Below are positions 2,084 to 64,000 of a DNA stretch of 64,000 bases, piece after piece. The translations under genes and the position numbers were made by a program. The number at the start of each line of letters is the position of its first letter. Positions within the stretch are counted from its first letter, which is position 1. A model generated the notes under the pieces. The model was given only the letters and a program-made list of their open reading frames with translations. It did no database searches and was not told the DNA's origin. Source of the DNA: Promethearchaeota archaeon (GTDB taxonomy: Archaea > Asgardarchaeota > Lokiarchaeia > Sigyniarchaeales > SOKP01); the NCBI GenBank assembly GCA_048940645.1, contig JBHLOI010000007.1:47077-111076 (forward strand). Direction: 5' to 3'.

Positions 2084-3697
2084 TCATTCCATGTTATTCA
2101 ATTTTTTAAGACCTATTAAAAGTAATGGAATAGCGAATAAAGTGCCAAAAATTATTAAAGGAAGGCTAAAAACCACTTTTATTAATTCTGGTGGAGGATT
2201 TAAATTCCCTAATAATTGAAATCCTAAGAAAAGGCTTCCAAAGATCGTTACCATGTTAATAATAACTAAAATCCCTATAGTAAGTTGCATATCACCCCCT
2301 TTTTCTTCAAATGCAGGGTTAATACACTGAAGTCCTATAGCTTGAGATACAGTTATTAAGCTATATATGATAAGAAACAGAAAAAAGAAAATTATAGTAA
2401 AGATATCATATTGAAAAAATAAACTAAAAAAAATTGTCAAGCCAATTCCTATAAAGAAGATTATAATAAAAATCATTTGCAGATATGAAAAGATTAACGC
2501 TTTAATATTTCTGGGGGATTTCTTGTATACCCATATTAGTTCTTTTGAACCAACAAAAATATAATTCCCTAAAAATAAACTAAATAGCATACCAGCAATC
2601 ATCACACTCATCATCATATACAAGCTGATGTCTTGATTATCTAAATTTGGATAATCTCCTCCTAAAAAGGCAAAAATAACTCCTTCAAATAGAGTTAATC
2701 CTATTGTATATACAATTTTCATTAGGTTTTCTCTTTTTCTAAAAAATTCTTTTAATTGAGTTATAATTAGACCTTTCCATTTTACTCCTGTAATTTTTTT
2801 TATAAATGTATAGAACTTATTTTCTTTTTCAATAGTAGTGGTAACTTTTTCAATGCTAGTTTCTAGAGAGAAAAAAATATGAGCCTTTTTGAAACTTATA
2901 TAGAGAATAATAAGAGGAATAAATACAGCAAGAGAAATACTTGCCCAGATATTAAGAATATACGAGCTTATTAATATTGGTTGAATAGTGTATAATATAA
3001 TATTTGAAAACCATAAAGAAGGGTAAAAACTTAAATAATTTTTAATTTGGGGATTAGATTTTATATAATTAAACAAGTATGTAAATGTATACATAATTAC
3101 TACCATTGCAATAGCTAAAAGAAATAGAATTAATTTACCTAAATCACGTGCTTTTTCACTTCTTACTATTTTATGTTCGAGCCAAGAGACTAAAATAGAT
3201 CCTAATAAAGCAGCAAAAATAACATGTCCAATAACACATGAATAAATAACAACATAATGAAGAATGTTTAAATCGATAATAGGGTTTATTAAACCAGTTA
3301 TAACTGGCGCCAATGCCAAAATAAATATTAGATATATTGGTATCTTTCCTAAAAATTCTCCAATAAAAATATCACCTGGTTTAGCTGGTGATGCTAATAC
3401 CATTTCTTTATAGCCAACTTCCGTCTTTCGATAAATATTTTGCATTGGATACATTATAATTATCAGGAATAGCATCATTAGTATAAATTCTATAAGATAT
3501 CCAACAATCGTTATAATAGTACTTGGGAAACTTGTGGCTAACGTAGGCATGAATAAGTCAAAAATTAAAGGCGCAATAAAAAACGCCCATATACAGAGTA
3601 TCGTATAAATAACCATAAATAACAAAAATCTATGGTTACGAAAACTACTTGTTTTCCTTCTTAATTCTGTTTTAGCAATCGCTTTCCAAGCTCTCAT
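2084..3697 (-). CDS. ABC-2 type exporter permease (duplicated ~12 TM)
   Basis: Two hydrophobic halves (IAKTELRR / LIITQLKEFFR; LASP..GDIF.G.FLG); 1 nt downstream of the ABC ATPase. Confidence 0.8.
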   Translation of the reverse strand: MRAWKAIAKTELRRKTSSFRNHRFLLFMVIYTILCIWAFFIAPLIFDLFMPTLATSFPSTIITIVGYLIEFILMMLFLIIIMYPMQNIYRKTEVGYKEMVLASPAKPGDIFIGEFLGKIPIYLIFILALAPVITGLINPIIDLNILHYVVIYSCVIGHVIFAALLGSILVSWLEHKIVRSEKARDLGKLILFLLAIAMVVIMYTFTYLFNYIKSNPQIKNYLSFYPSLWFSNIILYTIQPILISSYILNIWASISLAVFIPLIILYISFKKAHIFFSLETSIEKVTTTIEKENKFYTFIKKITGVKWKGLIITQLKEFFRKRENLMKIVYTIGLTLFEGVIFAFLGGDYPNLDNQDISLYMMMSVMIAGMLFSLFLGNYIFVGSKELIWVYKKSPRNIKALIFSYLQMIFIIIFFIGIGLTIFFSLFFQYDIFTIIFFFLFLIIYSLITVSQAIGLQCINPAFEEKGGDMQLTIGILVIINMVTIFGSLFLGFQLLGNLNPPPELIKVVFSLPLIIFGTLFAIPLLLIGLKKLNNME

Positions 3698-42725: not shown

Positions 42726-45700
42726 TCAGATTTTGTCTTGCTTCTTTCGCTTAATTAATAGATATAAAGCAAGTATTATTATTAAAACGAATAATAGTAT
42801 AAATATAGCTGGTCCAGTAAAATTGAATAATGAGAGCGTAATAGATAATATTGCTGCTAGGAATGCAAATATACTATAATTTTGGCTTGCAAAACTCCTT
42901 AGGCGCCTCCAGAACATATAAAATCTAAAATTCATCTTCTTCATAACCTCTAGTTCAGATTCATCTACTTTATTTAATAAATCTGGATTTTCATAATACA
43001 ATCCAATACGAGGATCGTATTTTCCTTTTAATTTCCCTGAACTAATTAAAGAAATTAAATGTTCTTGAATTTTTTGTTTCTTTATATTTAATTCGTTCTG
43101 TAAAAAGCTTATTGTCAAATATTGGTCTGCCACAGCTTTAATCGCCATTGAAACATATGATTTGATTATCATCTCATCAAGAGATTTAACTTTCTCATAC
43201 ATTAAATCACGAAAACCTTTAATAAATAACTCAAAATCATCTAGTAAATACTTATTCTTGGTTTCGAAATTATTTGACTTTCTTTCATATTCTCTAACTA
43301 AGTTTTTTATGTTTTTTGAAACCTCTCTAATTTCTGCCTGGATTTTCTTTTCTCTTTTTTGTACTTTTGCATGAGCTCTTTTAAACTCTTTATATTCTAT
43401 GTAGTCTTCAACTCTTGTCTGAAATGTTCCTAATAATTGACTTAAACGTATTTTTATTTTATTTATTTTGTCTAACAATTCATTTCGGTAGGTATCATCC
43501 TTTAATATACTAATATCTTCAGTAATTTTATCCAATTTAGCCTTGTAAAAAGCTCCAAATTCATTCTTTCTTGAGACATAAAATTCCCTTATTTCAGTTT
43601 CTAGCCGCTTGAAACTAGAATTTTTAGTTAGTGACCCTTTTAGTTTTTCATTAATCTTTTCCTCAATCCTTTTTACCTTAACATCAAATTTTGTTTTCTT
43701 AGATTCAAAATGTTCAATAGCTTTTACATAAGAACCAAAATTTTCAATATTTTCAAAAACTTTGATAAGATTATTTACAAAATCTAATGTTAATACATTA
43801 TATTCTTCTGAAATAAAAATCTGAAACTCATTAAAGAAATTTAAATTGGCTTTTATTTTTTGAATTGCCATCTTTCCATTTGTTAATATATTTTCTAATT
43901 CTTTTTTAGTGTTAAGATTTTCTTCTCTCTCTTCAGTAATTTTAAGTTGGTTAACTTTATCTTCATATTGAATTCTAATTTTTTTCTCTAAATCTGAATA
44001 TTCTGTGATTCTATTCTGTAGTTCTAGTATATTGACTGCTAATTTTTTATTCCTAACTCCGGAATCATATAGTGCTAAAATCTTTCCAATTTTTTCTTGA
44101 TGAAATTTTAAAAGTTTAGTATCAATATAGGTGTTTAATTCCTTGTTTTTGTAATAAGCATCATTATGAACAACCATTAATTTCTTTTCTTCATTTAAAT
44201 CACCCTCGATTTTAGAAAATTCTATCATTTCTTTAATGAGAGGTATTACTGCTTTACATTTTAAATTTAATTTATTTGCAAGCTCTCTTATATCTACTTT
44301 ATTTGTTTTTTTTTCTTTGGTCCATATCTCTATTTCACTAATGATAATTTGATTAACATAATTATCTTTTGAATTATTAATCTCAGTTGTAAGATAGTCA
44401 TGAAATTTTTCCCATTGGATGATTGAAATAGAATTTTTATCAAAACTTTGTATTAATGTTTTTAAATCATTTAATTTTTTTAAAAAGATTTTATTCTTAT
44501 CATCTAATTCTATGATTATTCTGTCAAAACCATCGATTACATCCTTGATTTTTATGCTTTTTGCTTCACCTAGTTTAGTTTTGTAAAATTTTAATCTAAT
44601 CTTGAATCTTTGAATTTGTTCGGATATAAAATTATCAAAATCTTCAATTTTAGCTCTATTTCTCTCTTCCAATACATCATCCTTCAGCGATTGAACTTGT
44701 TCTGCTACCAAGTTTATAATTGATTCTTCTATTACATCCAAATTTTCTTTTAAATATTGAAATAGAAGGAACAGTTTTTGATTAGTTTTTGTTTGATCTG
44801 AGACGATTATTCTAAGCTCCTTTATTTCCTTTATTTTTTGACTTAATAAACTTTCAGAATCCTTTTTAATAATCTCAAAAGCTTCTTTGAATTGATTTTG
44901 AGAAATTTTTTCATCCGCTTTTTGCTTTATATAAGATATTTCTTTTTTAATTTCATCATCAATCCCATCAATTTTTTCGCTTGTTTGTTCGAAAAATTTA
45001 AATCCTTCAGCATAATAACTAAAAATTGACCCGAATTCTTCTTTTAAGTTAACCCAATTATCAATAATCTCCTTATGTTTTTTAAAAACTTTCTCTTCTT
45101 TTATCGTAATTTGTTGTGATATTTTATAAATCGTATGATCATACTTATCCACATAATTTGAGATTTTATTAAATTCCCCAATTATTAAATTGTAATTCTC
45201 GTTATTAAATCCAGATTCAAGCTTCTCTCTAAAATATTTTCTAAATGAATCTAATTCTTTTTTAATAAATTCCCCAACTTCAAAAATTCTATTTTCTAAT
45301 TCATCTAAAATAGTATTAAATTTTTTTAATTCTTCTTTTTCGGAAATTTTTTCTTTTAAATATTTCTCAACTTCATTTAGCTTCTTCTGCATTATAGAGT
45401 ATGCTATTTTCCATTGATTAATTTCAGTTGCTAATACTGCTTGAATATTGATATATATCATATCTTGACTAAATGAATTTTCAATATTTTCATTTAGAAA
45501 ATCAGCTTCCAATAATGCATTTTTCAAGATAAATCTCAATCGTTCTTTTGCATAGTCTATTTCGTCTAGAAGTAAATAGGATTCAATTTCTTCTTTAATT
45601 TGCGTTGATGTATTTTTTAAAATTAAAGTCATATTATAGATATCGTTCTTAATATCGCCCAATTTTTCTTTTTCTTCAAATAATTTCTCTGTATTTATTT

Positions 45701-47132
45701 TCTTGTCCGAAGTTATAACATTATCCAGAAGAAAATCCAAATAAAAGTAATATTTTGATTTTCCTAGAAATTTTGATTTAGTTCGAATATTTCCCTTGAA
45801 AAAATTCCTTTCCATCATATCATAAATTAGAGGAAAAACATCCTCTCTCATTTTCAACGATTCAAAATGATAAGACGACTTATAATTCTTTAGAATGTCA
45901 GAAAGACATATTATGCTATTTTCATTTAACTGATTACTTATTTCATTCGCAATAACTTTTAATCCATTATTGAGGGTTCTCAGAAATTTACTAAATTCTA
46001 ATGTATTATTTATGATTTTTAGCTTGAAATTATAACTTAAATTGATATACAGGATGATCTCTTCAATCCCATGTGTTAGTCCAAAGGCAGTTTTTATGTG
46101 TTTAATATCCACGAATCCATTTTTTTCTATTTGTTTAAAAATCAGCCTTTCTATCTCTCCAATAAACTTTTTCCATATAAAAGATAAAAGTATTGTGATC
46201 TTGGATAAATTAAAGAATATGAGTGAACCTTGATCATTACCATTTTTGAAAAGTTTTTGAATATTTTCGTTGATAAAAGAATAGATTCTAGCAGGATTGT
46301 AATCCATTAGCCATGGAAAATGATTAAAAGTATAAATTATCCAAAAAGTATCATCTATATTTCCTTCTCCGTTAGAGAAGTTAAATCCTCCATCATATTT
46401 TTGAAATTGATGGAAATATTGAAGTTCTTTATCTTTTACTTCTAAATCCAAATTTAAATATTTAAGAGATAAATATTTGAAAAGCATAGAAGGAATTTTT
46501 TTTCTACTATTTAAATATGCACGGAATTGCTCTTTAAATAATCTAACATCTGAGCCTATAAGTGTGAGAATTTCGAGAACGTAATAAAACGTTTTTGAGG
46601 AAAATGGTTTTTTATGAATTTCACATTGTTTATCAAGACAATGGAGAAAAATTTCGCCTTTTTTATGTTCATATATAAAATTTTTGACTTTTCTTACAAG
46701 ATCATTACTTCCTTTTGAGAGGAGATATTCTTCTAGCAATCCTAATATATATAAGCTAGATAGGGCATAATATAAAGACCAAATATCAGGTACAGCTTTA
46801 GATTGAGGATTTAATTTAAAACCTATTTGATCCTTCTCTAAAATATCCACTTCACAGGATTTAATGAAATCATAAAAAACATGCTTTTGAGGTGTGAGAT
46901 CCTCCTTTAGATACTTCCCTAATAAGAGGAACCAATATAAATACTCTAGGTCTAAACTAGGCTCTTTAACTAGGGTTTTAACTTTTGATTGATAAAGATT
47001 TATGATTTTATCATAATAACTCAGATGGAAACTCCCAATTTTTTTCCTATCTACTAGTACAAAAGACTCAAAAGGTTCTCTTTTAAATTCTGTAATGTAT
47101 GGATACGCAGTTTTCTTTTCTACTTTTGACAA
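42726..47132 (-). CDS. Giant membrane-anchored protein: prenyltransferase-like alpha/alpha barrel + long coiled coil + PCI-like winged helices + 2 C-terminal TM
   Basis: PDIWSLYYALSSL, QKYDGGF..NIDDTFW; heptad-rich middle; VDIRELANKLNL..EMIEFSKIEG and ISFLQNELNI..LISLISSGKLKGKYD; hydrophobic hairpin at the end. Confidence 0.75.
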   Translation of the reverse strand: MSKVEKKTAYPYITEFKREPFESFVLVDRKKIGSFHLSYYDKIINLYQSKVKTLVKEPSLDLEYLYWFLLLGKYLKEDLTPQKHVFYDFIKSCEVDILEKDQIGFKLNPQSKAVPDIWSLYYALSSLYILGLLEEYLLSKGSNDLVRKVKNFIYEHKKGEIFLHCLDKQCEIHKKPFSSKTFYYVLEILTLIGSDVRLFKEQFRAYLNSRKKIPSMLFKYLSLKYLNLDLEVKDKELQYFHQFQKYDGGFNFSNGEGNIDDTFWIIYTFNHFPWLMDYNPARIYSFINENIQKLFKNGNDQGSLIFFNLSKITILLSFIWKKFIGEIERLIFKQIEKNGFVDIKHIKTAFGLTHGIEEIILYINLSYNFKLKIINNTLEFSKFLRTLNNGLKVIANEISNQLNENSIICLSDILKNYKSSYHFESLKMREDVFPLIYDMMERNFFKGNIRTKSKFLGKSKYYFYLDFLLDNVITSDKKINTEKLFEEKEKLGDIKNDIYNMTLILKNTSTQIKEEIESYLLLDEIDYAKERLRFILKNALLEADFLNENIENSFSQDMIYINIQAVLATEINQWKIAYSIMQKKLNEVEKYLKEKISEKEELKKFNTILDELENRIFEVGEFIKKELDSFRKYFREKLESGFNNENYNLIIGEFNKISNYVDKYDHTIYKISQQITIKEEKVFKKHKEIIDNWVNLKEEFGSIFSYYAEGFKFFEQTSEKIDGIDDEIKKEISYIKQKADEKISQNQFKEAFEIIKKDSESLLSQKIKEIKELRIIVSDQTKTNQKLFLLFQYLKENLDVIEESIINLVAEQVQSLKDDVLEERNRAKIEDFDNFISEQIQRFKIRLKFYKTKLGEAKSIKIKDVIDGFDRIIIELDDKNKIFLKKLNDLKTLIQSFDKNSISIIQWEKFHDYLTTEINNSKDNYVNQIIISEIEIWTKEKKTNKVDIRELANKLNLKCKAVIPLIKEMIEFSKIEGDLNEEKKLMVVHNDAYYKNKELNTYIDTKLLKFHQEKIGKILALYDSGVRNKKLAVNILELQNRITEYSDLEKKIRIQYEDKVNQLKITEEREENLNTKKELENILTNGKMAIQKIKANLNFFNEFQIFISEEYNVLTLDFVNNLIKVFENIENFGSYVKAIEHFESKKTKFDVKVKRIEEKINEKLKGSLTKNSSFKRLETEIREFYVSRKNEFGAFYKAKLDKITEDISILKDDTYRNELLDKINKIKIRLSQLLGTFQTRVEDYIEYKEFKRAHAKVQKREKKIQAEIREVSKNIKNLVREYERKSNNFETKNKYLLDDFELFIKGFRDLMYEKVKSLDEMIIKSYVSMAIKAVADQYLTISFLQNELNIKKQKIQEHLISLISSGKLKGKYDPRIGLYYENPDLLNKVDESELEVMKKMNFRFYMFWRRLRSFASQNYSIFAFLAAILSITLSLFNFTGPAIFILLFVLIIILALYLLIKRKKQDKI

Positions 47133-52312: not shown

Positions 52313-53710
52313 TTAGCTCTTCATATCTAAAATTTCTTCAAATGTTGGTTTTTCTTGAATATCTAAAAGTTTAAAGGAATCAATCAATTGAATTAAACCG
52401 TACACTTCTACATTATGATTGTATAGTTCATTTGCATCATACAAGTTTCTATAACAGAAGGGGCACTCAGTTGTAACTATATCTGCACCAACAGCATTTG
52501 CCTCATCTAATCGTAAACTAGATGTTTTTAATGAGAAATCAGGATATCCTGCTCGCACTCCGCCACCTGCACCACAGCAAAAGCTATCAAGCTTTATTCT
52601 ATACATCTCTTTAAATACAATGCCAACATCTTGTTCTAATTGTTTTAGTATGATTCGGGGGATTTCATACCATTCTGCAATCATTTGTCTAATCTTTCGG
52701 CTATCCATCATAAGGTTTTTAGATTCCTCGATTATGCTTTGTTCTATTTCTAAAGCCATGTGTCTTCCAAGATGGCATGGATCGTGGTATGTAACAACTT
52801 TACCCTTTAATTGCTTGTTTGGTTTAAATTTTATTTTTTCTGATGTAATTAACCGAGAAACTAACTCGAATGCATGCATTGTTTTAAAAGGCAAACTTTC
52901 TTCAGCCATCCATTTAGGGTAATCGTTTGAAAAAGTCTTGAAGCATCCTGCGCAGCTAAAAAAGATTAAATCGAAATCTTTAAAAGCCTTTAGGTTCTTA
53001 TTCATTAATTCTTGAGCAATATCAACCGCACCTACTCTAAAAAAAGGACTTCCACAACAAACTTCATCACTTATTAAGGTAAAATTGATTCCTAATTGCT
53101 CAAAGATTTTACAAGTAGCAACTGCAATCTCCATTTGCCTATAACTTGCTGTACAACCTACGTAGTATCCTACTTTTGCTTCTTTATTATCAATGTATTT
53201 TTCTAAGCCAGCATCCTTGGCCCATTTTAAACGTTCGTCAGCAGCACCACCATAAGGGTTATTTCTTTCCATAGTTAGCTTTTTGACTAATTCATGTTTC
53301 TCTATCATTGGAACTCCAGCTTCTACACAAGCAGCTCTTAAAGATTCTATAATATCAACAGTTCTAACTTTATTTTCACATTGAGCACTACACTGTCCAC
53401 AAGTAATACAAGGCATAATAACATCTCTAACTTCTTCAGAAAATTCCAAATCTTCATTTAAAATTGATCTTGCTATCCAAATTTTCCCCGCATTCCAAAA
53501 TGCTTCCCAACCGTATTCTATCCCAGCTGGGCAAGCATCAACCATACCTTCATAAAGTACTGTTCCTTGCTTACCAACATGTTCTCCAATTCCTTTCCTA
53601 TCTGGTTCACCTGAATAGGCAAATCTACACGCTTTACAGTGTATGCATTTGAATATATCTTTTCTTAATTCTTCCAACCTTTCCATTCCTGTTTTTGCCA
53701 TTTTTTCCAC
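52313..53710 (-). CDS. HdrD/GlpC-like Fe-S oxidoreductase (2 ferredoxin motifs + 2 CCG domains)
   Basis: CIHCKAC..CP, CITCGQC..C, GC, CCG, C..C, YHDPCHLGR, CCGAGGG, CPFC. Confidence 0.92.
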   Translation of the reverse strand: MEKMAKTGMERLEELRKDIFKCIHCKACRFAYSGEPDRKGIGEHVGKQGTVLYEGMVDACPAGIEYGWEAFWNAGKIWIARSILNEDLEFSEEVRDVIMPCITCGQCSAQCENKVRTVDIIESLRAACVEAGVPMIEKHELVKKLTMERNNPYGGAADERLKWAKDAGLEKYIDNKEAKVGYYVGCTASYRQMEIAVATCKIFEQLGINFTLISDEVCCGSPFFRVGAVDIAQELMNKNLKAFKDFDLIFFSCAGCFKTFSNDYPKWMAEESLPFKTMHAFELVSRLITSEKIKFKPNKQLKGKVVTYHDPCHLGRHMALEIEQSIIEESKNLMMDSRKIRQMIAEWYEIPRIILKQLEQDVGIVFKEMYRIKLDSFCCGAGGGVRAGYPDFSLKTSSLRLDEANAVGADIVTTECPFCYRNLYDANELYNHNVEVYGLIQLIDSFKLLDIQEKPTFEEILDMKS

Positions 53711-53719
53711 CTCTTTTGT

Positions 53720-55225
53720 TTACGGAAGAGCAAGTCTTCCTGGATGCATTATCATATTAGGATCAACAAGCTTTTTGAAGGCTCTCAAATATTTCCAATA
53801 CATGCCTGACATATAATATGCCTGGACGTGAATGTATGGATCTGGGCGATAATTTAACCATCCTTGTTTTAATCCGTATTCAGTTGTTTTTTGATTTAAT
53901 TCTTGTACTTTTTGAAAATCCTCGTCTTTTGTACTATCAAAACACACGATTGGCATACAAATTGCTTGCCTTCCGCGCTCGATCGATGCTATCCACATCA
54001 CAGGAGGAAAACCATACTTTTCCATCGCATTGCAATACATCTCTGCGAAATGGGCGCATTCATTCCAGGGAGTGTACCATGTAATAAATAGAAAGCCAGC
54101 TTCCCAGAATGAATAAGGAATTGCAATCTTATTCGGTTTCTTTAACCTGCTTGCGATTTGTTTTGGATGTAACTCCTGAGGAGCCATTGCTGCTCCATCT
54201 TTAGCTCTACTTTCCTTAAAATCTTTAGCTTGTCTATTGATAACTTCGATGACATGGTTTAACTCACTTTCTTCTTGAGCCCAAATTTCCCAATTCATCC
54301 ACCACTGCGAAATTCCCATTTCCTTATAAAATTCGTAATCATGTGGTACCTTATCTTTTGGCCATCGTGCCATAACAAGAGGATAATTCCCACCTTGTAC
54401 CATAACTGTATGATGGGAAACTCCAAATTCTTTTTTTGCAACCTCCAAGGTCAGGTTTTGCATATCATAAGGGTTTGACATGCCCCAAACTATTACAGTT
54501 TTGTATTCTGGATGTGGGTAAATCTTTACGGCTGCTTTTGTCACAACTCCTAAAGCACCTTGGGAACCCATTAAGAAGCTCCACATATCTGGACCTAGAC
54601 CATATTTATAGAATGGTTTCGCAGTAGGTAGAGCCCAAGAGCCTGTTCGGACGACATCCCCATTAGGAAAAACAACTTCTCCACACATAAAGTTATCGCC
54701 TTGTGGTCCTACTGAAGAAGTATAAAGTGAAAAACCTCTATCAATAGCATCACCCATAACGGTTGCTGCTGGAGGAGCACCATCTGGAATTGGTGGAGCC
54801 CAATCTGGATGATTCTTAGCCATATAAGCCCATAACTGGCCACAAGTAACTCCTGGTTCCACAATACAATAACGATTTTCTTCGTCAACTTCAATAATTC
54901 TATCCATTCTTCCTAAATCTAGAAGCACTCCACCTGGTCTAACTGTAGGGCATGCAAATCCGCCAGATAACCCTGCTGAAACTGGACTCACAGGAATCTT
55001 TTCTGCTGAACAATAAATCAAAACTTTTCTAATTTCTTCAACGTATTTCGGTCTTACAACGATATCTGGAATCTGGGATTCTAATCCCATTACAGATTTG
55101 GCAAGATATGAGGCTGTGATTGCCTTATTGTTGGTAGCATAATTTTTACCGACAATACCGATCATAGCTTCTAAATCTTTTTCAACTGGTAATTTATAGC
55201 TCATAATCCTTAACCTTTTAACCAA
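53720..55225 (-). CDS. FAD-linked oxidoreductase (VAO/PCMH/GlcD superfamily)
   Basis: PD.VVRP, LDL.RMDRI, VEPGVT, GSQG.LGVVTK, DPNMIMHPG. Confidence 0.9.
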   Translation of the reverse strand: MVKRLRIMSYKLPVEKDLEAMIGIVGKNYATNNKAITASYLAKSVMGLESQIPDIVVRPKYVEEIRKVLIYCSAEKIPVSPVSAGLSGGFACPTVRPGGVLLDLGRMDRIIEVDEENRYCIVEPGVTCGQLWAYMAKNHPDWAPPIPDGAPPAATVMGDAIDRGFSLYTSSVGPQGDNFMCGEVVFPNGDVVRTGSWALPTAKPFYKYGLGPDMWSFLMGSQGALGVVTKAAVKIYPHPEYKTVIVWGMSNPYDMQNLTLEVAKKEFGVSHHTVMVQGGNYPLVMARWPKDKVPHDYEFYKEMGISQWWMNWEIWAQEESELNHVIEVINRQAKDFKESRAKDGAAMAPQELHPKQIASRLKKPNKIAIPYSFWEAGFLFITWYTPWNECAHFAEMYCNAMEKYGFPPVMWIASIERGRQAICMPIVCFDSTKDEDFQKVQELNQKTTEYGLKQGWLNYRPDPYIHVQAYYMSGMYWKYLRAFKKLVDPNMIMHPGRLALP

Positions 55226-55400: not shown

Positions 55401-55784
55401 CTAGTTAATATTCACAACTTTAGAGTTTTGAATAACTTTCTTAATTTCTTTATTTAATTGATCAATACTAAAGGGTTTTTCAATAAAACTCTTTGCTCCA
55501 ATTGATAGCGCCTGTTTTTTTACGGAATTATCCGCACTTATAAAGATAATATTTGTATGAGAATTTAATCTAGTAAGCTCGAGAGTAGTATCAATTCCAT
55601 TTTTAATAGGCATTCTGTGATCCATCAAAACAATGTCAGGTTTGTTTATTAGAGACTTAAAAATATTAATTGCTTCAGAGCCATTCCCTGCTTTGCCAAT
55701 TATCTTAAATCCTTGCGTTTTTAGCATCATTTCATATAATTTCTGCAAGTATATGTCATCCTCTACAATTAAAATTGAAGTCAA
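55401..55784 (-). CDS. Single-domain response regulator
   Basis: VEDD, MDHRMP..NG, SA, KPF. Confidence 0.95.
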   Translation of the reverse strand: MTSILIVEDDIYLQKLYEMMLKTQGFKIIGKAGNGSEAINIFKSLINKPDIVLMDHRMPIKNGIDTTLELTRLNSHTNIIFISADNSVKKQALSIGAKSFIEKPFSIDQLNKEIKKVIQNSKVVNIN

Positions 55785-55785
55785 A

Positions 55786-58035
55786 TTACTCCACCTCTGG
55801 TATCAATATTATAAATTTACTTCCTTGAGAATAATCACCGTTAACTTTATCTTCAACCCAGATTTGTCCATTGTAAATTCCAATTACTTTCTTTACGAGT
55901 GTTAATCCCAGTCCCAAACCCTTAATAATGCCCTTGTGATTATAACCTCTCTGAAAAACTTTTTCTTTCATTTCATTTGGAATACCGATACCATTGTCGA
56001 TAAATTCCATTCGAATAAAGTTTCTTCCATCAAAAATCTCTTTTGAGACCTTTATTATTAATTCTATTGAAGAATTTCGATTGTACCTTATAGCATTGAT
56101 TAAAATATTTTCAAAAACGTCTGGTAATAACTCATTTGCTTTAATGAATATTTGCCCTTCATCATAGAGAATTTCAAGATTAATATTTTTATTTTGAAAG
56201 GACTTGATGATGTAATTTTTAACTTCATTGAGAACTCCAACTAATTCAACCTTTTTCAAATGTGATTCAATTTCTTCAATTTCTGAAAGTTTCCTTACAT
56301 TTGAGATTAAGTTCGAGCCTCTAATAATTTGATCTTTAATAATATCAAGGAAATTATTTCCTTTTCTTATATTCATTTCTTCTAATAATAAAGAAAGTAA
56401 TTCAGCGGATGATTGAATATTTTGAAAAATATTATTTATATCATGAGCGAAAAGATCTTTGTAAAAATTAGAACGATTAAAAGCTTCCCGATATCTTTTT
56501 TCTGATTCTTTTAACTCATTTGCTGCTTCTTTTTTATCCGAAATATCCTCTAATATGAATTGTATTAATGATTCGTCTCCTACCTTTGTCAATGATATAC
56601 TACTATTTACCCAAATTATACCTCCAATTGATCTATTTATAGGGAATTCCAAATTTTTAATCTTTTCACCATTGATTACTTTTCCAATTACATCTTCGAA
56701 AAATGGTATTAAATTTTTGTTTTTTTCACGAAGGAACCAAATTTCTTTATAATTTCTACCAATTAAGTCATCTATAGTATGTTTTGATAAAAACCTATTT
56801 GTAGATGTGTTACAATCGATTATATTGCCTTTAAGATCTAATAATACTATGCCATAAGGAGAAGTATCAAAAAGGTGACGAAATTTTTTTTCTGAAGCTT
56901 TTAGTTTTTGTTCAGAGATTTTTCTTTCACCAAAATCACGGACTATTGTTATTATTTGATTTACTTTTCCCTTACTAATTATTGGAATTTTTCGAGACTC
57001 AGTGAAATAAGTTGTTCCCTTAATAAAAGTCTCCTCGTCTGTGATAAGTGTTTTTCCAGAATCTAATACTTCTTTGTATTCATCAATAACTTTTTCAGGT
57101 AAAAAAGGAAAGGCTTCATTTAGTCTTTTACCTAACACATCGGTTCGTAAACCTATAACCTCAAGCCATCTTTTAATTGCTGGATTAATAAGAATAAGTC
57201 TTAAATCTTTATCAATAACGTGTATGGCATCACCCATTGAATCAATTGTATTACGATATTGTAGTTCTGTATCTTTTAATTTTTCTTCAGCTTGTTTAAT
57301 CTTTGTAATTTCATTAGTGATTTCAACGGTGGCTATAACATTTCCTTCTTCATCTAAAACGGGAAATCCTTTAACTAACCATACTCTTCCATCTGGAGTA
57401 GTCATTTCTGCCTTAGTTGGGGTACAAGTTTCAACTGCAGAAGTAACTGGGCAACTGGGGCATTTATCATCCCGATTATTCCAAATCTTATGACATTTTT
57501 TTCCTATTAATTGATCAGTAGTTAAGTTAACTGAATCTGCCGCGGCTTTATTTGTCCAGATAATTCTATTATTTAAATCTTGATAAACGATATGCTCTGA
57601 AATGCTTTCTAATATTATAGATTTTTCGCTTTCAGCCTTCTTCAATAAATTTTCTGCTTCTTTTTGTTTACTAATATCTTCGGTATAAACAATAACGAGA
57701 TTCGGTGCTATATAGTTATAAGTTGTATAAAGAACCTTCTGTTTACCAGAAGTCTTATATTTATAAAGTATTTCTTTTGAAAAATTAAATTTTTCATAAA
57801 AACATGTTTTTAGATCCTTAGATACTTCAGAATCTTCATCGTATATATCTGTTAAGCTTAAACCTAAATAATCTGAAACTTTTCCTTCAGTAATAATTTC
57901 TGCTGCCTTATTATAGTCAATTAATTTGAAATCATCATTATCTATTTTCCAGATATAAGTAGGAGTAGGGATACTCTTAAAAATAGACTTATAATTTCCG
58001 ACATTAAAGTTCGACTCAAGATTTTTATTGCTCAA
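55786..58035 (-). CDS. Cytoplasmic multi-PAS histidine kinase
   Basis: ~4 PAS domains; AHDINN, ENILINA, DNGIG, F, GLGLGL; no TM. Confidence 0.95.
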   Translation of the reverse strand: MSNKNLESNFNVGNYKSIFKSIPTPTYIWKIDNDDFKLIDYNKAAEIITEGKVSDYLGLSLTDIYDEDSEVSKDLKTCFYEKFNFSKEILYKYKTSGKQKVLYTTYNYIAPNLVIVYTEDISKQKEAENLLKKAESEKSIILESISEHIVYQDLNNRIIWTNKAAADSVNLTTDQLIGKKCHKIWNNRDDKCPSCPVTSAVETCTPTKAEMTTPDGRVWLVKGFPVLDEEGNVIATVEITNEITKIKQAEEKLKDTELQYRNTIDSMGDAIHVIDKDLRLILINPAIKRWLEVIGLRTDVLGKRLNEAFPFLPEKVIDEYKEVLDSGKTLITDEETFIKGTTYFTESRKIPIISKGKVNQIITIVRDFGERKISEQKLKASEKKFRHLFDTSPYGIVLLDLKGNIIDCNTSTNRFLSKHTIDDLIGRNYKEIWFLREKNKNLIPFFEDVIGKVINGEKIKNLEFPINRSIGGIIWVNSSISLTKVGDESLIQFILEDISDKKEAANELKESEKRYREAFNRSNFYKDLFAHDINNIFQNIQSSAELLSLLLEEMNIRKGNNFLDIIKDQIIRGSNLISNVRKLSEIEEIESHLKKVELVGVLNEVKNYIIKSFQNKNINLEILYDEGQIFIKANELLPDVFENILINAIRYNRNSSIELIIKVSKEIFDGRNFIRMEFIDNGIGIPNEMKEKVFQRGYNHKGIIKGLGLGLTLVKKVIGIYNGQIWVEDKVNGDYSQGSKFIILIPEVE

Positions 58036-58181: not shown

Positions 58182-58985
58182 TTATTTTTTTAATAATTTT
58201 TTTGAAGAATAGCGAATACCAATGAAAAGGAAGAACAATGAAAAAATCAACGCTAAGGGGAGATATCCTACAATTATATATGTAAAGCCAGGTTCTATAG
58301 AAAAGAAATATAAAGTTATTGTAACCGCCAAATATATAAAAGAATTTACTGTAGCGATTTTCCAATTAGGAGAAAGATACCCAAGGATTAAGTTTGGAAG
58401 CAAAAATAGTATGATTATATTTACAGTTGATAATAAAATTAAAGATGGCATAAATCGAGTTAAAAGTTGGGAAGGATTTAAATATCGATTCAGCTGAAAA
58501 ACAGTATAAAGAAAATTCGTAGCAAAAATACTTAAAAAAATAAGTAGATATGATAATGGTGCCACAATTAACCAAGCAATTAAAAATCTAATTTTTGGTG
58601 ATTGCATTATTTTTCCTTTCATATTATTTTGGATTATTTTTTCCATGTCTTCCTCAAAAATTTTTTCAGGATTGAAATCTGGAGCGTAGGTATCTATAAA
58701 ATCTTGTAAAATATCTTTTAAAATAGTTAAAATTAACTGGTTATTATCGTTTGAGCTAACAATTACAGCTCCAAGCATATTTTCTTCTGATATGGGAAGC
58801 AAAATGAGTTTATTATTTTGCCCTAAATCAACGTTTTTAATTACACTTCCTAATGCTTCCCTGCTAAAATTAGCGATTGATGCGAAAAATCCTACTAAAA
58901 TATTATCGTCATACTTCTCTCTCATAAAATTTTTAGAATATAAGACAATTCCATTTTCATCCATAATATAAAGACTCTTAAACAT
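58182..58985 (-). CDS. Longin-like domain fused to 4 TM helices
   Basis: SLYIMDENGIVLYSKNF..DDNILVGFFASIANFSREALG..I..V; IL..F...Y; hydrophobic C-terminal half; SD GGAGG upstream. Confidence 0.75.
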   Translation of the reverse strand: MFKSLYIMDENGIVLYSKNFMREKYDDNILVGFFASIANFSREALGSVIKNVDLGQNNKLILLPISEENMLGAVIVSSNDNNQLILTILKDILQDFIDTYAPDFNPEKIFEEDMEKIIQNNMKGKIMQSPKIRFLIAWLIVAPLSYLLIFLSIFATNFLYTVFQLNRYLNPSQLLTRFMPSLILLSTVNIIILFLLPNLILGYLSPNWKIATVNSFIYLAVTITLYFFSIEPGFTYIIVGYLPLALIFSLFFLFIGIRYSSKKLLKK

Positions 58986-59008
58986 ACAATTACCTCCTAA
59001 TTTTTTGG

Positions 59009-60718
59009 TTAATTTCTTTCTAAATATTCTAAATAATCACCTATTGAAGCTTTTGAAATTTTGAAGCTAAAAAGGTTTGCTCCAAACAATTCAGTTAATT
59101 TTATTATTAATTTATCTGGATTTTCTTTTATGTATATTTTATATTTTTCATTTTTCCTTTCTTCAATTATTCTATTAACTCCTTCGAACTCCTTTATTTT
59201 TTTAATTAAATTCTCATCTGCATTATTGAATTCAACTGTAATGTATTCACCCGCATAGGGTAGTGCATTGATATATTCCTCATGTGTCCCTATTTCAGAT
59301 ACATTTTGAGAAACTGTCAGAATTTGATCACATTTTGAAGAAATTCCTTCGGGGCCATGAAAAATAAGTATTATATGGAATATTTCTTTAATGCGATTCA
59401 TATATTTGTTGAATTTCTCAAAATCTATTCTATTAAGCAATCCAAAAGGTATTGAAAACATTACAATTGTAGGTGATTGAAGCAAAGCTCTTCCAATTGA
59501 AAATAGCAAAAATTCTAAAGGTGTTAATTGAGAAAATCTTTTTTTCTTTTTATTCCATAAGCCCGTGGCTGTTAAAGCATTTTTAATGAATTCTTTCTTG
59601 CGAGTAAATTTTAAAAGAGGAGCTTCGATAAGAAAATCACTTACGAGATCCCCCATTTTAGAAGTTAATCCTGCATTTTTTAAAACTTTATCCAGAGCAA
59701 CTTTTTTTTCTTTAAAAATACCCTTAATATCTATACTATATTGAATTGCTTTTTTAAGCTTCATTTTAGTTATTTTTGACTCATAAGCTTGAGGTAAGAT
59801 AAAAATTCTCTCCATATCATATGAGGGTAATAATTGAATATATCTACCAAAGATCTCAATTCTGCCTAAAAAATTAGGATGCTCACCTGATATAGTCTCA
59901 AAGAGTTTTAATAATGTCAATCTATGCTCAGCATTCTCAAACAAATCTTTATCATAAACAATTCCTATTGATTTGCCTCTATGGATCCTAAATGAGATGT
60001 CTTTTATATTACCTCCTATTGAAAAATTATCAACCACAAGGTGTTGAGAATTATATTTTATAGGTTCTACTTTTAAACGATCCGATACAATTTGAGTTAA
60101 TTTTTCAACTAACTCATATATATGAGGTGGATTTAATTCATGCCATTCTTTGATAATATCAGATTCGTTAAATTCCCTTTCACTTACAATTCTTGAAAGA
60201 GTTTTTGAAAAAGAAAATGAAGGAATAGTTGGAAATTTTTCAAAATTTATATTAAGCTTTACTACAAAATCAGGGAAATAAATTCTTACTTCTCTATGGT
60301 AAGGAATATTATCTATGGGGAAATTTTCATATATTTCATCAAGAAGTTCTACTTCTTTATCCAAGAGTGCTAAATGTTTCTGAAATTCTCTTCTTATAAG
60401 CTTTCTCATTCGACCGATAATTTTCACCGGACTAACAAGTCCATCATCATCAAAATCAGGTTCTACTATGATTTCATCGAAATCTATTTGCTCTTCAATA
60501 GGAGTATAAATTTTTAATAAAGGGACTCCCTTCTCAAGAACATCTTTATTTGTAAAGAATAAAACTTCAAAAAAAGACTTTTTATAAACTAAATTTATAA
60601 TAGAGGCAATTCCAAAAGTATTTTGCCTATAGGTCATCCAAAATCGTTTAGAAAAGCGTATAGCATCTAAGATTTTTAGTCTAAGGCGCTCTAATTCGCC
60701 CATTTTAAAGTTCTTCAA
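59009..60718 (-). CDS. UBC/RWD-like domain(s) fused to a catalytically dead ABC ATPase
   Basis: LNINFEKFPTIPSFSF..IKEWHELNPPHIYELV; ISF.IHRGKSIGI with no Walker A; LTPLE for LSGGQ; RALLQSP.IVMFSIP lacking DE. Confidence 0.7.
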   Translation of the reverse strand: MKNFKMGELERLRLKILDAIRFSKRFWMTYRQNTFGIASIINLVYKKSFFEVLFFTNKDVLEKGVPLLKIYTPIEEQIDFDEIIVEPDFDDDGLVSPVKIIGRMRKLIRREFQKHLALLDKEVELLDEIYENFPIDNIPYHREVRIYFPDFVVKLNINFEKFPTIPSFSFSKTLSRIVSEREFNESDIIKEWHELNPPHIYELVEKLTQIVSDRLKVEPIKYNSQHLVVDNFSIGGNIKDISFRIHRGKSIGIVYDKDLFENAEHRLTLLKLFETISGEHPNFLGRIEIFGRYIQLLPSYDMERIFILPQAYESKITKMKLKKAIQYSIDIKGIFKEKKVALDKVLKNAGLTSKMGDLVSDFLIEAPLLKFTRKKEFIKNALTATGLWNKKKKRFSQLTPLEFLLFSIGRALLQSPTIVMFSIPFGLLNRIDFEKFNKYMNRIKEIFHIILIFHGPEGISSKCDQILTVSQNVSEIGTHEEYINALPYAGEYITVEFNNADENLIKKIKEFEGVNRIIEERKNEKYKIYIKENPDKLIIKLTELFGANLFSFKISKASIGDYLEYLERN

Positions 60719-63700
60719 TTTTGGGCACCTCCATAGCTTTATATCTGAAGAATTGCTCCATCTTTGAATCTATTTGTTTTAGCAATTGAATAGAATTGTT
60801 ACCGATTACGTTTTCTATTTTATAAAATAAATCATTTACATTTAAGTTGGTAAAGATTGAAAAATTTGTTCCAACTTTATTTTCTAAAACTTTTTCGATG
60901 CCTTCAATAGATTCAAGTGATTCTATGGCATTTTCAATGTGTTTGTAAAATTGTATCTCCACTGAGCGTCCCTTCCCGGGTAATTGATCTAACAGTTCTT
61001 TTGGCTTTCCAAAATCAATCATTCCCCGTTTCCTCCCAAAAATTGCTACATCATTACAAAAACGCGATTCTTCTGGATAGTGTGTGATAACTATTAGTGT
61101 GGTTTTAAATTGCTCATTAATTTTTGTAAGTGTTAACCATAAGCTCTCTCTTATTATTGGATCTAATCCAGAAGTTGGTTCATCTAAAATAAGAAAAATT
61201 GGTGAATGAATCAAACCAACAGCAATACTTACTCGTCTTTTTTCTCCCCCAGATAAATTTTTTACTAATTCATACATCTTATTTTCAATATCTAAGCTTC
61301 TCAATATCCTTTTAGATTTGCTTATTATCTCTTTTTCAGTTAATCCATACTGATTCCCAAAGTATAATAAATTTTCTATAGTGGTGAAATCATGATAAAG
61401 TTTTCCCAAATCTTGAGGTACATAACCATAAATAGGTCTTATTCTTTTTGCTGTTCTCTTACTCATGTTCATTCCATAAATTTGACAAAATCCTGTTATT
61501 TTTCTCATACCTAGTAAGCCCTTTATAAATGTTGACTTTCCAGCCCCACTTTCTCCTAGAATGCCTAGAATTTTACCATGCGATATACTCATTGATACTG
61601 AATCAACTATCAATGTCCCACCAGCATACACACTAAAATTTTCACAGTTTATCGCAGGAAATTGTTGCAGGTATGATGGAGTTAACTTCTCTCCTATTCC
61701 AAATAATAACTTTATCCTCTGTGGAATAGAAAGTCTCTGATATAATTTCAATAAAATAAATAATCCTAAACCTATAAGCTCTACAATAAGAATATAAGAT
61801 AACATCTCATTCCATGGTTTAGAATCAAAAGCCTGATCATATTTTAATTCATCGACTATGACTATTCCATAAGCAGCATTTCTTAAATCTCCGCCAAAAC
61901 CTGGATTATCTCCAAAACCTCCAGTTGTTTCACTAATACATTCTCTATACCAATTTAATGCTCCTTTTATATCTTCTGGCTGATATTGATAATCATAGAG
62001 AGCCTTAGATGCTAAATATGTAACTAAAAATGTTGATGGTAATTCTATATATTGACCTATAGCGGGTAATAATGAAAAACTTCCATCACGCATTTGCGCA
62101 AGCTTTAAGAATTCTATTACAGCAATCTTAGACATTGGTTCAGAAGAAAAAAATTGGTTAAATATTTCAAGACCAAAATATGTAGAGATTATATCACTAT
62201 GGAAACCTATAAAAATTGAAAACCCTCCATCTGGATTTTGACATGATTTTATCCAATGTGAAAGATTGTTCCGATCAATTAAATGACTGCTCTGAAGTAT
62301 ATCAAGCGAAATTAATGCCCAATATGTACTTTCAACTGTAGAAACATTTGTATTGATTAAATTTAGGAAAAAGTTATAATATGGACCAAATAGGGAAAGT
62401 AAAAAATCAATATCATTTCCGACTCTAAAACCTCCATCAGGATTTTGGAGACCTACTAAATAAGTTGTGGTTTTTGAAATATTTTGCTCGTAAAATTGAT
62501 TTAACTCATACGGATCAATAAAATTGATTATATTCAGGGCACAATACGTTGAAAAAAGAGTAGAATTTAAATCCGGTCTTGAACCAAAACCACCATCCTC
62601 TATATTATAACAATTATAAACATAAGTTAATATATTATCGGCCTGTGTGTCATTATCAAATAAATTTTCAGGATTATAATTCCTTAATGCTAAAACTCCA
62701 AAATAATTAGATTCCAGGGTTATATGACCAAATAACGAATTTAACGCTTGGTGATCATGCAACCAGTTATAATAATTAAGTTTTATTTGATTTATCCTAT
62801 TTTCAATAGTGGGGGTAAAGTTATATGATTTTTCTAAAATTGATAAGGCTTTCATTGCAGCCCAACCATAATTAAAATCTGAAGCTGTTGCAAAAACTGG
62901 ATGCTGGCCAAAACCTCCGTCTGGATTACTACAATTTAAAATGAAATCGAGAGTACTATTTTCATTGAACCAGAGCTTTGTTAAATTCCATAAATTCAAT
63001 AAATCCAATGATGCCAAGCAGTAAAATGTAGATTCAATATCTGATATAACCCCTAGGTTACTTCTAAAACCACTATCTATATTATATAATGAGCTGATAT
63101 ATGTTGATAATGCTATTTCTTTTATAGTATCATAAGTCATGTTCATGCCGATATAAGCTTTGATTCCGTGATAAGTGGTTTCGGGAGTGGGTATTAAGGA
63201 GAAATCAGTTAAAGAATACCCCCCTGTTATTACCCATGTAGAATTTATATATTTACTTATATTTTCATTATTTAAAATCGAAATTCCCGAAAGTATTTGG
63301 GCTAATTCAATCGCATAAGACGTTGAGATGATATCCGAATAATTCAAAACGGGAACAACTCTAAATCCCCATCCATTTCCATTCAATGAGTCATTTAGAT
63401 AATTAATAATTTCTGTTGTTTTATTTTCCATTATTTTACGATTAAGATAAGTTTTATTTGCCACCTCAATTGTTTTTATTGCTTCATAGGTAGAAATCAT
63501 GTTACCCAAGCCACCTATATCGGAATAGGCTCCATTAATGTTTTGCTTTTCAAATATGTAGTCGAAAAAGAAATTTGGGGCCAGTTTTTTAATTAAATCA
63601 TTTCTTAAATTGTTGGGATCTATTAAACGGGAATCTGTATTACTCACATGCGTGAAATTAATAGAATCAATAGCTCTAAAATTTGTATCTAGGTTTGGTT

Positions 63701-63905
63701 CTAAGAATAAGCCATCATCATTTTGATGGGATTTGGTAAAATAGGCAGCATTTCTTTTGACATATTGCACACTATTTTCATCAATATAAGAAATAAAGCG
63801 AGTATTTACAAGAATTAAGGTTAAGATTGGAGTTCCAATAAGAAGAAATAAGATAATAAAATTTTTTAATCTCCTTTTACCCGTTCGGCTCAGCTTTATA
63901 ATCAA
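60705..63905 (-). CDS. 2-TM protein: extracellular double prenyltransferase-type alpha/alpha barrel fused to a cytoplasmic ABC ATPase
   Basis: ~12 QNxDGGF-type repeats between two TM helices; GESGAGKS, VPQ, LSGGE, LILDEPTSGLDP, ITH; SD GGAGGTG upstream. Confidence 0.85.
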   Translation of the reverse strand: MIIKLSRTGKRRLKNFIILFLLIGTPILTLILVNTRFISYIDENSVQYVKRNAAYFTKSHQNDDGLFLEPNLDTNFRAIDSINFTHVSNTDSRLIDPNNLRNDLIKKLAPNFFFDYIFEKQNINGAYSDIGGLGNMISTYEAIKTIEVANKTYLNRKIMENKTTEIINYLNDSLNGNGWGFRVVPVLNYSDIISTSYAIELAQILSGISILNNENISKYINSTWVITGGYSLTDFSLIPTPETTYHGIKAYIGMNMTYDTIKEIALSTYISSLYNIDSGFRSNLGVISDIESTFYCLASLDLLNLWNLTKLWFNENSTLDFILNCSNPDGGFGQHPVFATASDFNYGWAAMKALSILEKSYNFTPTIENRINQIKLNYYNWLHDHQALNSLFGHITLESNYFGVLALRNYNPENLFDNDTQADNILTYVYNCYNIEDGGFGSRPDLNSTLFSTYCALNIINFIDPYELNQFYEQNISKTTTYLVGLQNPDGGFRVGNDIDFLLSLFGPYYNFFLNLINTNVSTVESTYWALISLDILQSSHLIDRNNLSHWIKSCQNPDGGFSIFIGFHSDIISTYFGLEIFNQFFSSEPMSKIAVIEFLKLAQMRDGSFSLLPAIGQYIELPSTFLVTYLASKALYDYQYQPEDIKGALNWYRECISETTGGFGDNPGFGGDLRNAAYGIVIVDELKYDQAFDSKPWNEMLSYILIVELIGLGLFILLKLYQRLSIPQRIKLLFGIGEKLTPSYLQQFPAINCENFSVYAGGTLIVDSVSMSISHGKILGILGESGAGKSTFIKGLLGMRKITGFCQIYGMNMSKRTAKRIRPIYGYVPQDLGKLYHDFTTIENLLYFGNQYGLTEKEIISKSKRILRSLDIENKMYELVKNLSGGEKRRVSIAVGLIHSPIFLILDEPTSGLDPIIRESLWLTLTKINEQFKTTLIVITHYPEESRFCNDVAIFGRKRGMIDFGKPKELLDQLPGKGRSVEIQFYKHIENAIESLESIEGIEKVLENKVGTNFSIFTNLNVNDLFYKIENVIGNNSIQLLKQIDSKMEQFFRYKAMEVPKIEEL

Positions 63906-63921
63906 TCAACACCTCCTATTT

Positions 63922-64000
63922 TCAATTTAAAGTTTTTTCTTTCTCCTCTTCTTCTTGAATCCTAATTTGAAAGAATCTCCTAAAACTGGCTATATCCCTG
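63922..64000 (-). CDS. 3' end of an upstream operon gene (possibly another ABC-ATPase-type C-terminus)
   Basis: ...RDIASFRRFFQIRIQEEEEKEKTLN*, stop 16 nt before the next start. Confidence 0.55.
   Translation of the reverse strand, partial: RDIASFRRFFQIRIQEEEEKEKTLN

Follow-up and report, generated by a model that had tools for sequence, protein, structure and literature searches.

Type V exporters of the ATP-binding cassette (ABC) superfamily, such as DrrAB, NodIJ, GldAFG and YbhFSR, combine ABC-2 permeases, in which the first transmembrane (TM) helix is followed by a large outside loop and five more TM helices (the ABC2_membrane_3 family), with ATPases that carry a C-terminal domain of the regulatory type. 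Tethered accessory subunits or mechanotransmission are features of several other ABC systems, namely MlaFEDB, where MlaD contributes an outside domain on a single TM helix and MlaB is located on the nucleotide-binding domain (NBD), LptB2FGC, FtsEX and MacB. Here we describe a locus with likenesses to both groups in a metagenome-assembled genome (MAG; 3.8 Mb, 89.6% complete) of a Promethearchaeota archaeon from the class Lokiarchaeia. The window, i.e. the whole stretch of 64,000 nucleotides that was analyzed, is the final 64 kb of contig JBHLOI010000007.1, and the subject of this analysis is a trio of tightly packed minus-strand genes close to its end that encode proteins of 1066, 569 and 267 amino acids. 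With a probability that we put at roughly 60%, this trio is the distal half of a six-gene operon that encodes an ABCA/ABCH-like type V (ABC-2) exporter along with three lineage-specific accessory subunits.

The nearest described type V exporters are lipid exporters, namely human ABCA1, ABCA3 and ABCA4 and the ABCH transporter of Tribolium (PDB 8yzp, 8z01, 9ju6). The permeases and the ATPase of the operon core have the type V layout outlined above, and the exporter core is ordinary in this respect. The three added subunits are new: the described type V exporters are not known to have a second ATPase tethered to a surface toroid, a pseudo-ATPase with RWD domains or a membrane protein with a longin domain. 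With MlaFEDB, LptB2FGC, FtsEX and MacB, the operon would share a membrane-tethered large outside domain that handles substrate and to which ATP-driven movement is transmitted, and a small cytoplasmic accessory of the ATPase, but there is no known relationship in sequence or fold, and the tethered accessory has a full ATPase of its own. Furthermore, unlike in the MlaFEDB-type systems, the cytoplasmic accessory is a dead ATPase with eukaryote-type domains.

A probable six-gene operon interrupted by the contig end

The genes of the trio occupy positions 60705-63905 (1066 amino acids), 59009-60718 (569 amino acids) and 58182-58985 (267 amino acids), each with a GGAGG Shine-Dalgarno sequence 6-7 nucleotides ahead of the start. 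Counted from the cut-off gene that precedes them on the minus strand, the intergenic spacings are 16, -14 and 23 nucleotides, the negative value being the overlap between the start of the 569-amino acid gene and the 3' end of the 1066-amino acid gene. The contig terminates exactly at base 64000, inside this fourth gene, of which the last 26 codons are present (63922-64000, minus strand). At every base, the fragment can be aligned to the 3' terminus of the gene for a 332-amino acid ATPase in two genomes that are ~90% identical to this one (G022 and G019). This gene is the third one of the operon. The 332-amino acid protein is an ordinary ABC ATPase of the DrrA/ABCA type, with all motifs present (ABC_tran, E = 1.1e-25 in G022), and in G022 it is preceded by two ABC-2 permease genes (ABC2_membrane_3, E = 1.4e-27 and 3.1e-25). 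The operon order is permease, permease, ATPase, barrel-TM-ATPase (the 1066-amino acid protein), RWD-pseudo-ATPase (569 amino acids) and longin-4TM protein (267 amino acids). G022 and G008 have the complete operon on a single contig.

The only significant PDB matches of the permease are insect ABCH transporters (8yzp, 9ju6; E = 2e-7), and the 332-amino acid ATPase has its best PDB matches in ABCA3, ABCA1 and ABCA4, namely in their NBDs (E from 1.7e-40). The core of the operon resembles lipid pumps.

The operon was compared across 56 further loci from GTDB genomes and metagenomes, with the G033 locus left out on account of broken reading frames. Wherever the flank is long enough, the six genes occur in the same order and tightly packed, local rearrangements excepted, and this order is held from 93% identity to ~20-40%, the RWD protein going down to 20-25% in the most distant relatives. 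The three genes of the trio are not chance open reading frames (ORFs) because each of them is conserved in a family of more than 150 proteins. Coupled translation of the barrel and pseudo-ATPase genes is suggested by the fact that they overlap or abut not only in the window but in distant loci as well.

The initial annotation of this region, made from the DNA sequence, had given the same gene coordinates, spacings and Shine-Dalgarno sites, and had singled out synteny across Asgard relatives as a check, and this synteny turns out to be very strong, with six genes in the same order. It had also recorded the lack of a conventional permease and of a solute-binding protein among the visible genes. 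This is true, yet the reason is that the contig stops at 64000, and the more far-reaching proposal of a machine without a conventional permease has to be abandoned, given that two ABC-2 permeases and an ordinary ATPase are encoded upstream in the relatives' loci.

The three accessory proteins

The 1066-amino acid protein consists of TM1 (amino acids 15-33; nucleotides 63807-63863), predicted to have its N-terminus inside, a prenyltransferase-type alpha/alpha toroid ectodomain (amino acids 34-700; 61806-63806), the hydrophobic helix TM2 (amino acids 701-719; 61749-61805) and an intact ABC ATPase with a C-terminal domain of the DrrA/GldA type (amino acids ~750-1066; 60708-61658), all encoded, like the other features below, on the minus strand. 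Basic stretches precede TM1 and follow TM2, and the C-terminal ATPase can only be located in the cytoplasm, which puts the 670 residues between the two helices outside the cell. The ectodomain matches the Pfam family Prenyltrans (PF00432) with E = 1.6e-37, in three stretches; phmmer finds two separate regions that are similar to prenyltransferase beta subunits (RabGGTase beta, E = 4.7e-17; FTase beta, E = 3.4e-8), and there is a weak match to squalene cyclases as well. Repeats of the xGGF type run along both halves of the ectodomain, with six in the second half, which suggests a double toroid. Among structural clusters of the ESM Atlas, the look-alikes of the barrel are generic toroid families and the protein's own cluster only.

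Thus, the alpha/alpha toroid with repeats of the xDGGF type is common to this protein, the RabGGTase and FTase beta subunits and squalene-hopene cyclase. Unlike the beta subunits, the archaeal toroid is extracellular, membrane-tethered and doubled, and it has neither the zinc-site histidine, nor DxDD, nor an alpha subunit. When 14 relatives are compared, conservation in the ectodomain falls for the most part on Gly, Phe and Trp, which are structural residues of the repeats; a small number of polar residues do not vary (C432, D559, D666, D673, R675 and N676), and no histidine is invariant or nearly so. The DxDD motif is absent from the 1066-amino acid protein, and no gene for an alpha subunit is found in the operon among the window's relatives. 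With neither a conserved histidine nor DxDD, the canonical site of a zinc prenyltransferase or a class II cyclase is not kept. The best-conserved extracellular stretch is the 35 residues directly before TM2.

The ATPase part of the same protein has all six motifs intact (GESGAGKS, YVPQ, LSGGE, FLILDE, SGLD and LIVITH), they are invariant in the 14 relatives, and by its motifs the domain is predicted to be a catalytically competent ABC ATPase. It matches Pfam ABC_tran and, over the full length including the C-terminal domain, ATPases of the DrrA/GldA type. Among the 120 homologues listed of the 172 found, the fusion of Prenyltrans and ABC_tran is kept in all but one partial protein, and every homologue with a named source comes from a Promethearchaeota-type MAG.

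The 569-amino acid protein combines tandem UBC/RWD-like domains without cysteine (amino acids 1-216; 60071-60718) with a pseudo-ATPase (amino acids ~225-569; 59012-60046), and has no Pfam match. Weak similarity to ABC ATPases extends over residues 313-559, and residues 375-550 match the NBD of the 1066-amino acid protein (E = 1.2e-9). Walker A, Q-loop, signature, Walker B, D-loop and H-loop are all missing (0 of 6), and the six motifs are degenerate in each of the 21 aligned family members, so the ATPase part is a pseudo-ATPase, inactive for as long as the family has existed. The pseudo-NBD retains the helical subdomain and a remnant of the signature, L-[ST]-x-x-[ED], that is conserved in the family.

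The AlphaFold2 (AF2) model of residues 1-232 (predicted local distance difference test score, pLDDT, 89) consists of two consecutive units, each a helix with a beta-meander, the arrangement of the tandem RWD/UEV modules of FANCL (DRWD), Knl1 (C-terminus), CENP-O/P and BRE (BRCC45). The top Foldseek matches in PDB, weak as they are (E from 1.5e-3), are these tandem-RWD proteins, with FANCL represented by its central domain, and E2 enzymes; in a VIA search, all 50 rows are E2, UEV or RWD chains. The second unit superimposes on E2, UEV and RWD structures (single domains of these kinds are those of Ubc8, Tsg101 and the GCN2 RWD) with Z of 8-9.4 and a root mean square deviation (rmsd) of 2.6-3.4 Å over ~100 residues (top VIA match: Z 9.4, rmsd 2.6 Å, 97 residues), and the first unit matches RWD at a VIA Z of 6.8. 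In the ESM Atlas, an Asgard RWD/UQ_con family forms the closest cluster and BRE comes next. Together, the model and these matches place residues 1-232 in the UBC/E2 superfamily fold. A [YF]PxxP motif after the meander is invariant (P163, P166). There is no cysteine in residues 1-232, the sole one in the protein being residue 463 in the pseudo-ATPase part, and with no E2 catalytic cysteine the UBC/RWD domain is non-catalytic. The known RWD/UEV modules differ from the present one, which is fused to a dead ABC ATPase, has no Pfam match and contains no catalytic cysteine. Among 1.84 billion proteins, the N-terminal module has 30 cluster representatives, all on proteins of the 569-amino acid type. 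A diverged member of the family, the 748-amino acid protein P0260 (locus L034, 3514-5760), has an extra N-terminal region of ~200 residues before the RWD domains that matches Pfam Extensin_1 and so is probably proline-rich.

The 267-amino acid protein has no Pfam or NCBIfam match at E = 0.01. In its AF2 model (pLDDT 80.5), residues 1-126 (58608-58985) have the order beta-beta-alpha-beta-beta-beta-alpha-alpha and are predicted to be cytoplasmic; four long TM helices follow as a membrane bundle (amino acids ~130-263; 58197-58598) with very short cytoplasmic loops of a few residues. With E no higher than 1e-3 (1.7e-4 and better), Foldseek retrieves 21 longin chains, among which are those of AP sigma and mu, COPI zeta and delta and TRAPP. 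The VIA Z scores are 13.4, 13.3 and 13.2 to the longin domains of AP-3 mu, Sec22 and VAMP7, clearly higher than the 8-10 to Roadblock/MglB, and across the known longins the match is at Z 13.0-13.4 with an rmsd of 2.4-3.1 Å over 110-121 residues. Thus, by the fold of the model, residues 1-126 are a longin domain, with the topology found in the R-SNAREs Sec22, VAMP7 and Ykt6, the small and medium AP/COPI subunits, TRAPP, Mon1-Ccz1 and SRX. Unlike these known longins, it is joined directly to a membrane bundle of four helices, its gene is part of an ABC operon, and there is no SNARE motif. The first ~125 residues also have weak sequence matches (E of 1e-7 to 1e-11) in other Asgard proteins of varied length.

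The ATPase-fold proteins of the operon appear to be related to each other. All three match the full DrrA/GldA-type ATPase, the C-terminal domain included, and in two genomes the best paralogue of the NBD of the barrel protein is the operon's own ATPase (E = 2.5e-44, versus 2.3e-34 for the next). Because of this closest affinity and the shared C-terminal domain, the extra subunits probably arose by duplication inside the operon.

The domain calls of the initial annotation stand up well: a barrel joined through a TM segment to an active ABC ATPase (Prenyltrans at 1.6e-37, six intact motifs), a UBC-like domain with a dead ABC ATPase (Z 9.4, no cysteine in the domain, no motif out of six) and a longin domain with four TM helices (Z 13.4). 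That annotation had named beforehand what would speak against it, including N-terminal domains that fit neither the longin nor the UBC fold, and an ordinary ABC-2 permease encoded upstream; the folds hold, whereas the ordinary permeases are indeed there in the relatives' loci. The asymmetric dimer of an active and a dead NBD that it had proposed is plausible. It had also taken the system to be undescribed, and full-text literature searches returned no published description of this architecture; the public annotation of the operon's proteins includes 'ATP-binding cassette domain-containing protein' or 'hypothetical'.

Phyletic distribution

The distribution was assessed with the longin-4TM protein in an even set of 300 genomes of the phylum. 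Full-length orthologues are present in 36 of the 68 genomes from the window's own Lokiarchaeial family. Outside this family, a different family of the class contains a single weak full-length match (E = 4e-19), interrupted by one internal stop, and the remaining matches in the sample cover the first ~125 residues only. Diverged copies are found in two other families of the same order. Of five genomes of the same genus that have no trio, four are also without permease orthologues, which indicates that the cassette tends to be gained and lost as a whole.

By gene identity, the named matches all come from Promethearchaeota-type MAGs, including some records with other Asgard labels and one with a bacterial label. 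The conflicting labels (loci L059, L042, L053, L066, L041 and L039) are Nanopelagicaceae bacterium, Odinarchaeota, Thorarchaeota, Hodarchaeota and Hermodarchaeota. The genes in these records are 60-94% identical to genes of Promethearchaeota MAGs, which looks like mislabelling or bin contamination.

Genes adjacent to the operon

In the window, the trio is followed, 146 nucleotides downstream, by a gene for a soluble PAS histidine kinase (55786-58035, minus strand) and then by one for a stand-alone receiver-domain response regulator (55401-55784, minus strand), neither of which belongs to the conserved core. About half of the loci with a flank, all of them in closer relatives, have the receiver gene after the operon, whether or not the PAS kinase gene is there too, and both genes are missing from deeper branches that retain all six operon genes. 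There is no conserved seventh gene downstream, only neighbours at the genus level (the regulator, the kinase and a GlcD/GlcF-like pair), and no conserved GTPase or ubiquitin-system gene is found near the operon in the compared loci.

Beyond the kinase and the regulator, the window encodes a GlcD-like FAD protein of 501 amino acids and a CCG/Fe-S protein of 465 amino acids (52313-55225, minus strand). In relatives of the same genus, a pair of ORFs of ~495 and 450-475 amino acids and then an ORF of ~1470 amino acids come after the operon, a correspondence that is by size only. Together with the region 42726-47132 of the window, the FAD/Fe-S pair hints that synteny may extend beyond the operon.

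A mini-intron and rearrangements around the ATPase gene

In nine of the relatives' loci (L038, positions 3580-3610; L040, L043, L050, L054, L068, L078, L079 and L082), all of them outside the window, the gene for the 332-amino acid ATPase contains an insert of 31, 32 or 34 nucleotides. The insert is full of stop codons and lies exactly between the Walker B motif (LDEPTT) and the D-loop (GVDA). The junctions fold as the canonical archaeal bulge-helix-bulge (BHB) in all nine loci, with an outer helix of 3 out of 3 base pairs and two bulges of three nucleotides; the central helix has 4 out of 4 base pairs in seven loci and 3 out of 4 in two. The three length classes have inner hairpins of unrelated sequence, and in the central helix the intron half varies so as to fit the exon half. 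A cut after the second bulge nucleotide restores DEPTTGVDA in all nine cases. Judging from these features, the insert is very probably an intron of the tRNA (BHB) type in an mRNA.

The local rearrangements of the operon affect the same neighbourhood. In three loci (L068, 860-3045; L079, 1470-3030; L043, 2026-3109), 1-2 kb of unrelated small genes separate the second permease gene from the ATPase gene, with a duplicated 5' fragment of the latter present in two of them (L068 and L079). In G019 (contigs C249 and C263), an ORF of 2814 amino acids is located upstream of the ATPase gene, and the permease pair is on a different contig. The interval between the second permease and the ATPase is a hot spot of rearrangement, and the rearranged loci (L068, L079, L043 and G019) all have the intron form of the ATPase gene.

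Possible functions of the system

If the operon encodes an exporter with accessory subunits, its six products can be fitted into a single scheme, which is tentative and, taken as a whole, has odds well short of even. The pump would move a hydrophobic substrate, possibly similar to isoprenoid lipids, out of the membrane, and the tethered toroid at the surface would receive or handle it. The position of the toroid would be driven, through TM2, by the barrel protein's own ATPase, and the latter would pair with the pseudo-ATPase to form a dimer with a single catalytic site. The RWD domains of the soluble pseudo-ATPase, together with the longin domain in the 4-TM protein, might hold it at the membrane and regulate it. 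The narrower proposition that the longin and RWD/UBC modules form a cytoplasmic adaptor layer of an ABCA-like lipid exporter seems quite unlikely.

Several points weigh against the exporter with accessory subunits. The two permeases and the 332-amino acid ATPase would already make a complete pump, and the trio could act apart from it. In three genomes, the permease pair is separated from the remaining four genes, and in G019 it is on another contig. A search of the present assembly (89.6% complete) for the upstream genes revealed no permease orthologue and only paralogous ATPases. Three ATPase-fold subunits per two permeases leave the stoichiometry ambiguous. The prediction of a complex between the 569- and 267-amino acid proteins scored 0.00, which counts neither for nor against contact. 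The nature of the substrate has been guessed solely from resemblances in fold and family. Without a conserved histidine in the ectodomain, the barrel is not a canonical zinc prenyltransferase, and its binding of lipids is putative.

The apparent completeness of the core pump leads to an alternative that we consider unlikely: the trio could be a self-contained transmembrane sensor, an 'ABC receptor' in which ligand binding by the barrel alters how the active NBD dimerizes with the dead one, this state is relayed by the RWD and longin domains to a small GTPase, a ubiquitin-like system or the kinase and regulator, and the adjacent pump is either the regulated target or merely co-expressed. The barrel protein, with two TM helices and no recognizable permease domain, fits this picture, as do the longin and RWD folds, which are protein-docking modules in solved complexes, the receiver protein (with the PAS kinase or without it) encoded after the operon at roughly every second locus, and the separability of the permease pair. 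However, the candidate recipients of the signal are not there consistently: the kinase and the regulator are absent in deeper branches that keep all six genes, and since neither GTPase genes nor genes of the ubiquitin system are conserved alongside the operon, the link to such partners that was drawn in the initial annotation is left with no support. Moreover, the trio never occurs without the ATPase gene where a flank exists, and the trio and the permeases are present or absent together in most of the genomes tested, which goes against a module independent of the pump.

The two other alternatives concern the barrel protein. Its ectodomain could be an extracellular enzyme that modifies the exported substrate, by prenyl transfer, terpene cyclization or the chemistry of the lanthionine-cyclase or glycosidase alpha/alpha toroids, with the ATPase as a mere anchor or timer. 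The strong similarity to prenyltransferase beta subunits, the weak match to squalene cyclase and the six invariant polar residues are compatible with catalysis, but the Asp/Cys/His zinc site is apparently lost with its histidine, DxDD is absent, there is no alpha-subunit partner, the prenyl diphosphate donors are cytoplasmic, and most of the conserved positions are structural Gly, Phe and Trp, all of which makes an enzyme very unlikely. Slightly less probable still is a split third half-transporter, composed of the barrel and longin-4TM proteins, with the pseudo-ATPase serving the 4-TM part. The arithmetic is attractive, in that two and four TM helices add up to six and that TM1, a large outside domain and TM2 reproduce the opening of the ABCA/ABC-2 permease plan. 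Nevertheless, hhalign of the 267-amino acid family against the permease family gives a probability of 0.1%, and cytoplasmic loops of a few residues in the 4-TM protein offer no space for a coupling helix.

Implications for Asgard biology

The set of 'eukaryotic signature' domains in Asgard archaea includes longin and UBC/RWD, and for hardly any of these domains is a partner or a role in the archaeon known. The two modules are usually regarded as precursors of the vesicle traffic and ubiquitin signalling of eukaryotes. The operon gives both folds a fixed genetic setting, beside an exporter that resembles lipid pumps and a barrel with a fold of the isoprenoid-binding type, and this setting raises testable questions on the binding partners of these domains, the exported substrate and the role of the dead ATPase. 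The system is optional even within one family, roughly half of whose genomes have it, and its range is narrow, so it is a speciality of this lineage rather than a general Asgard trait.

If the proposed arrangement is correct, an ABC ATPase that is linked through one helix to a large outside domain and works in a pair with a pseudo-ATPase would represent a new build of ABC systems. On the quite unlikely reading that the longin and RWD/UBC modules are the adaptor layer of a lipid exporter, these folds would have first served, in Asgard archaea, to couple the export of lipids or isoprenoids and membrane remodelling to an ATP-driven switch of one active and one dead ATPase, perhaps read out by small GTPases or ubiquitin-like proteins.

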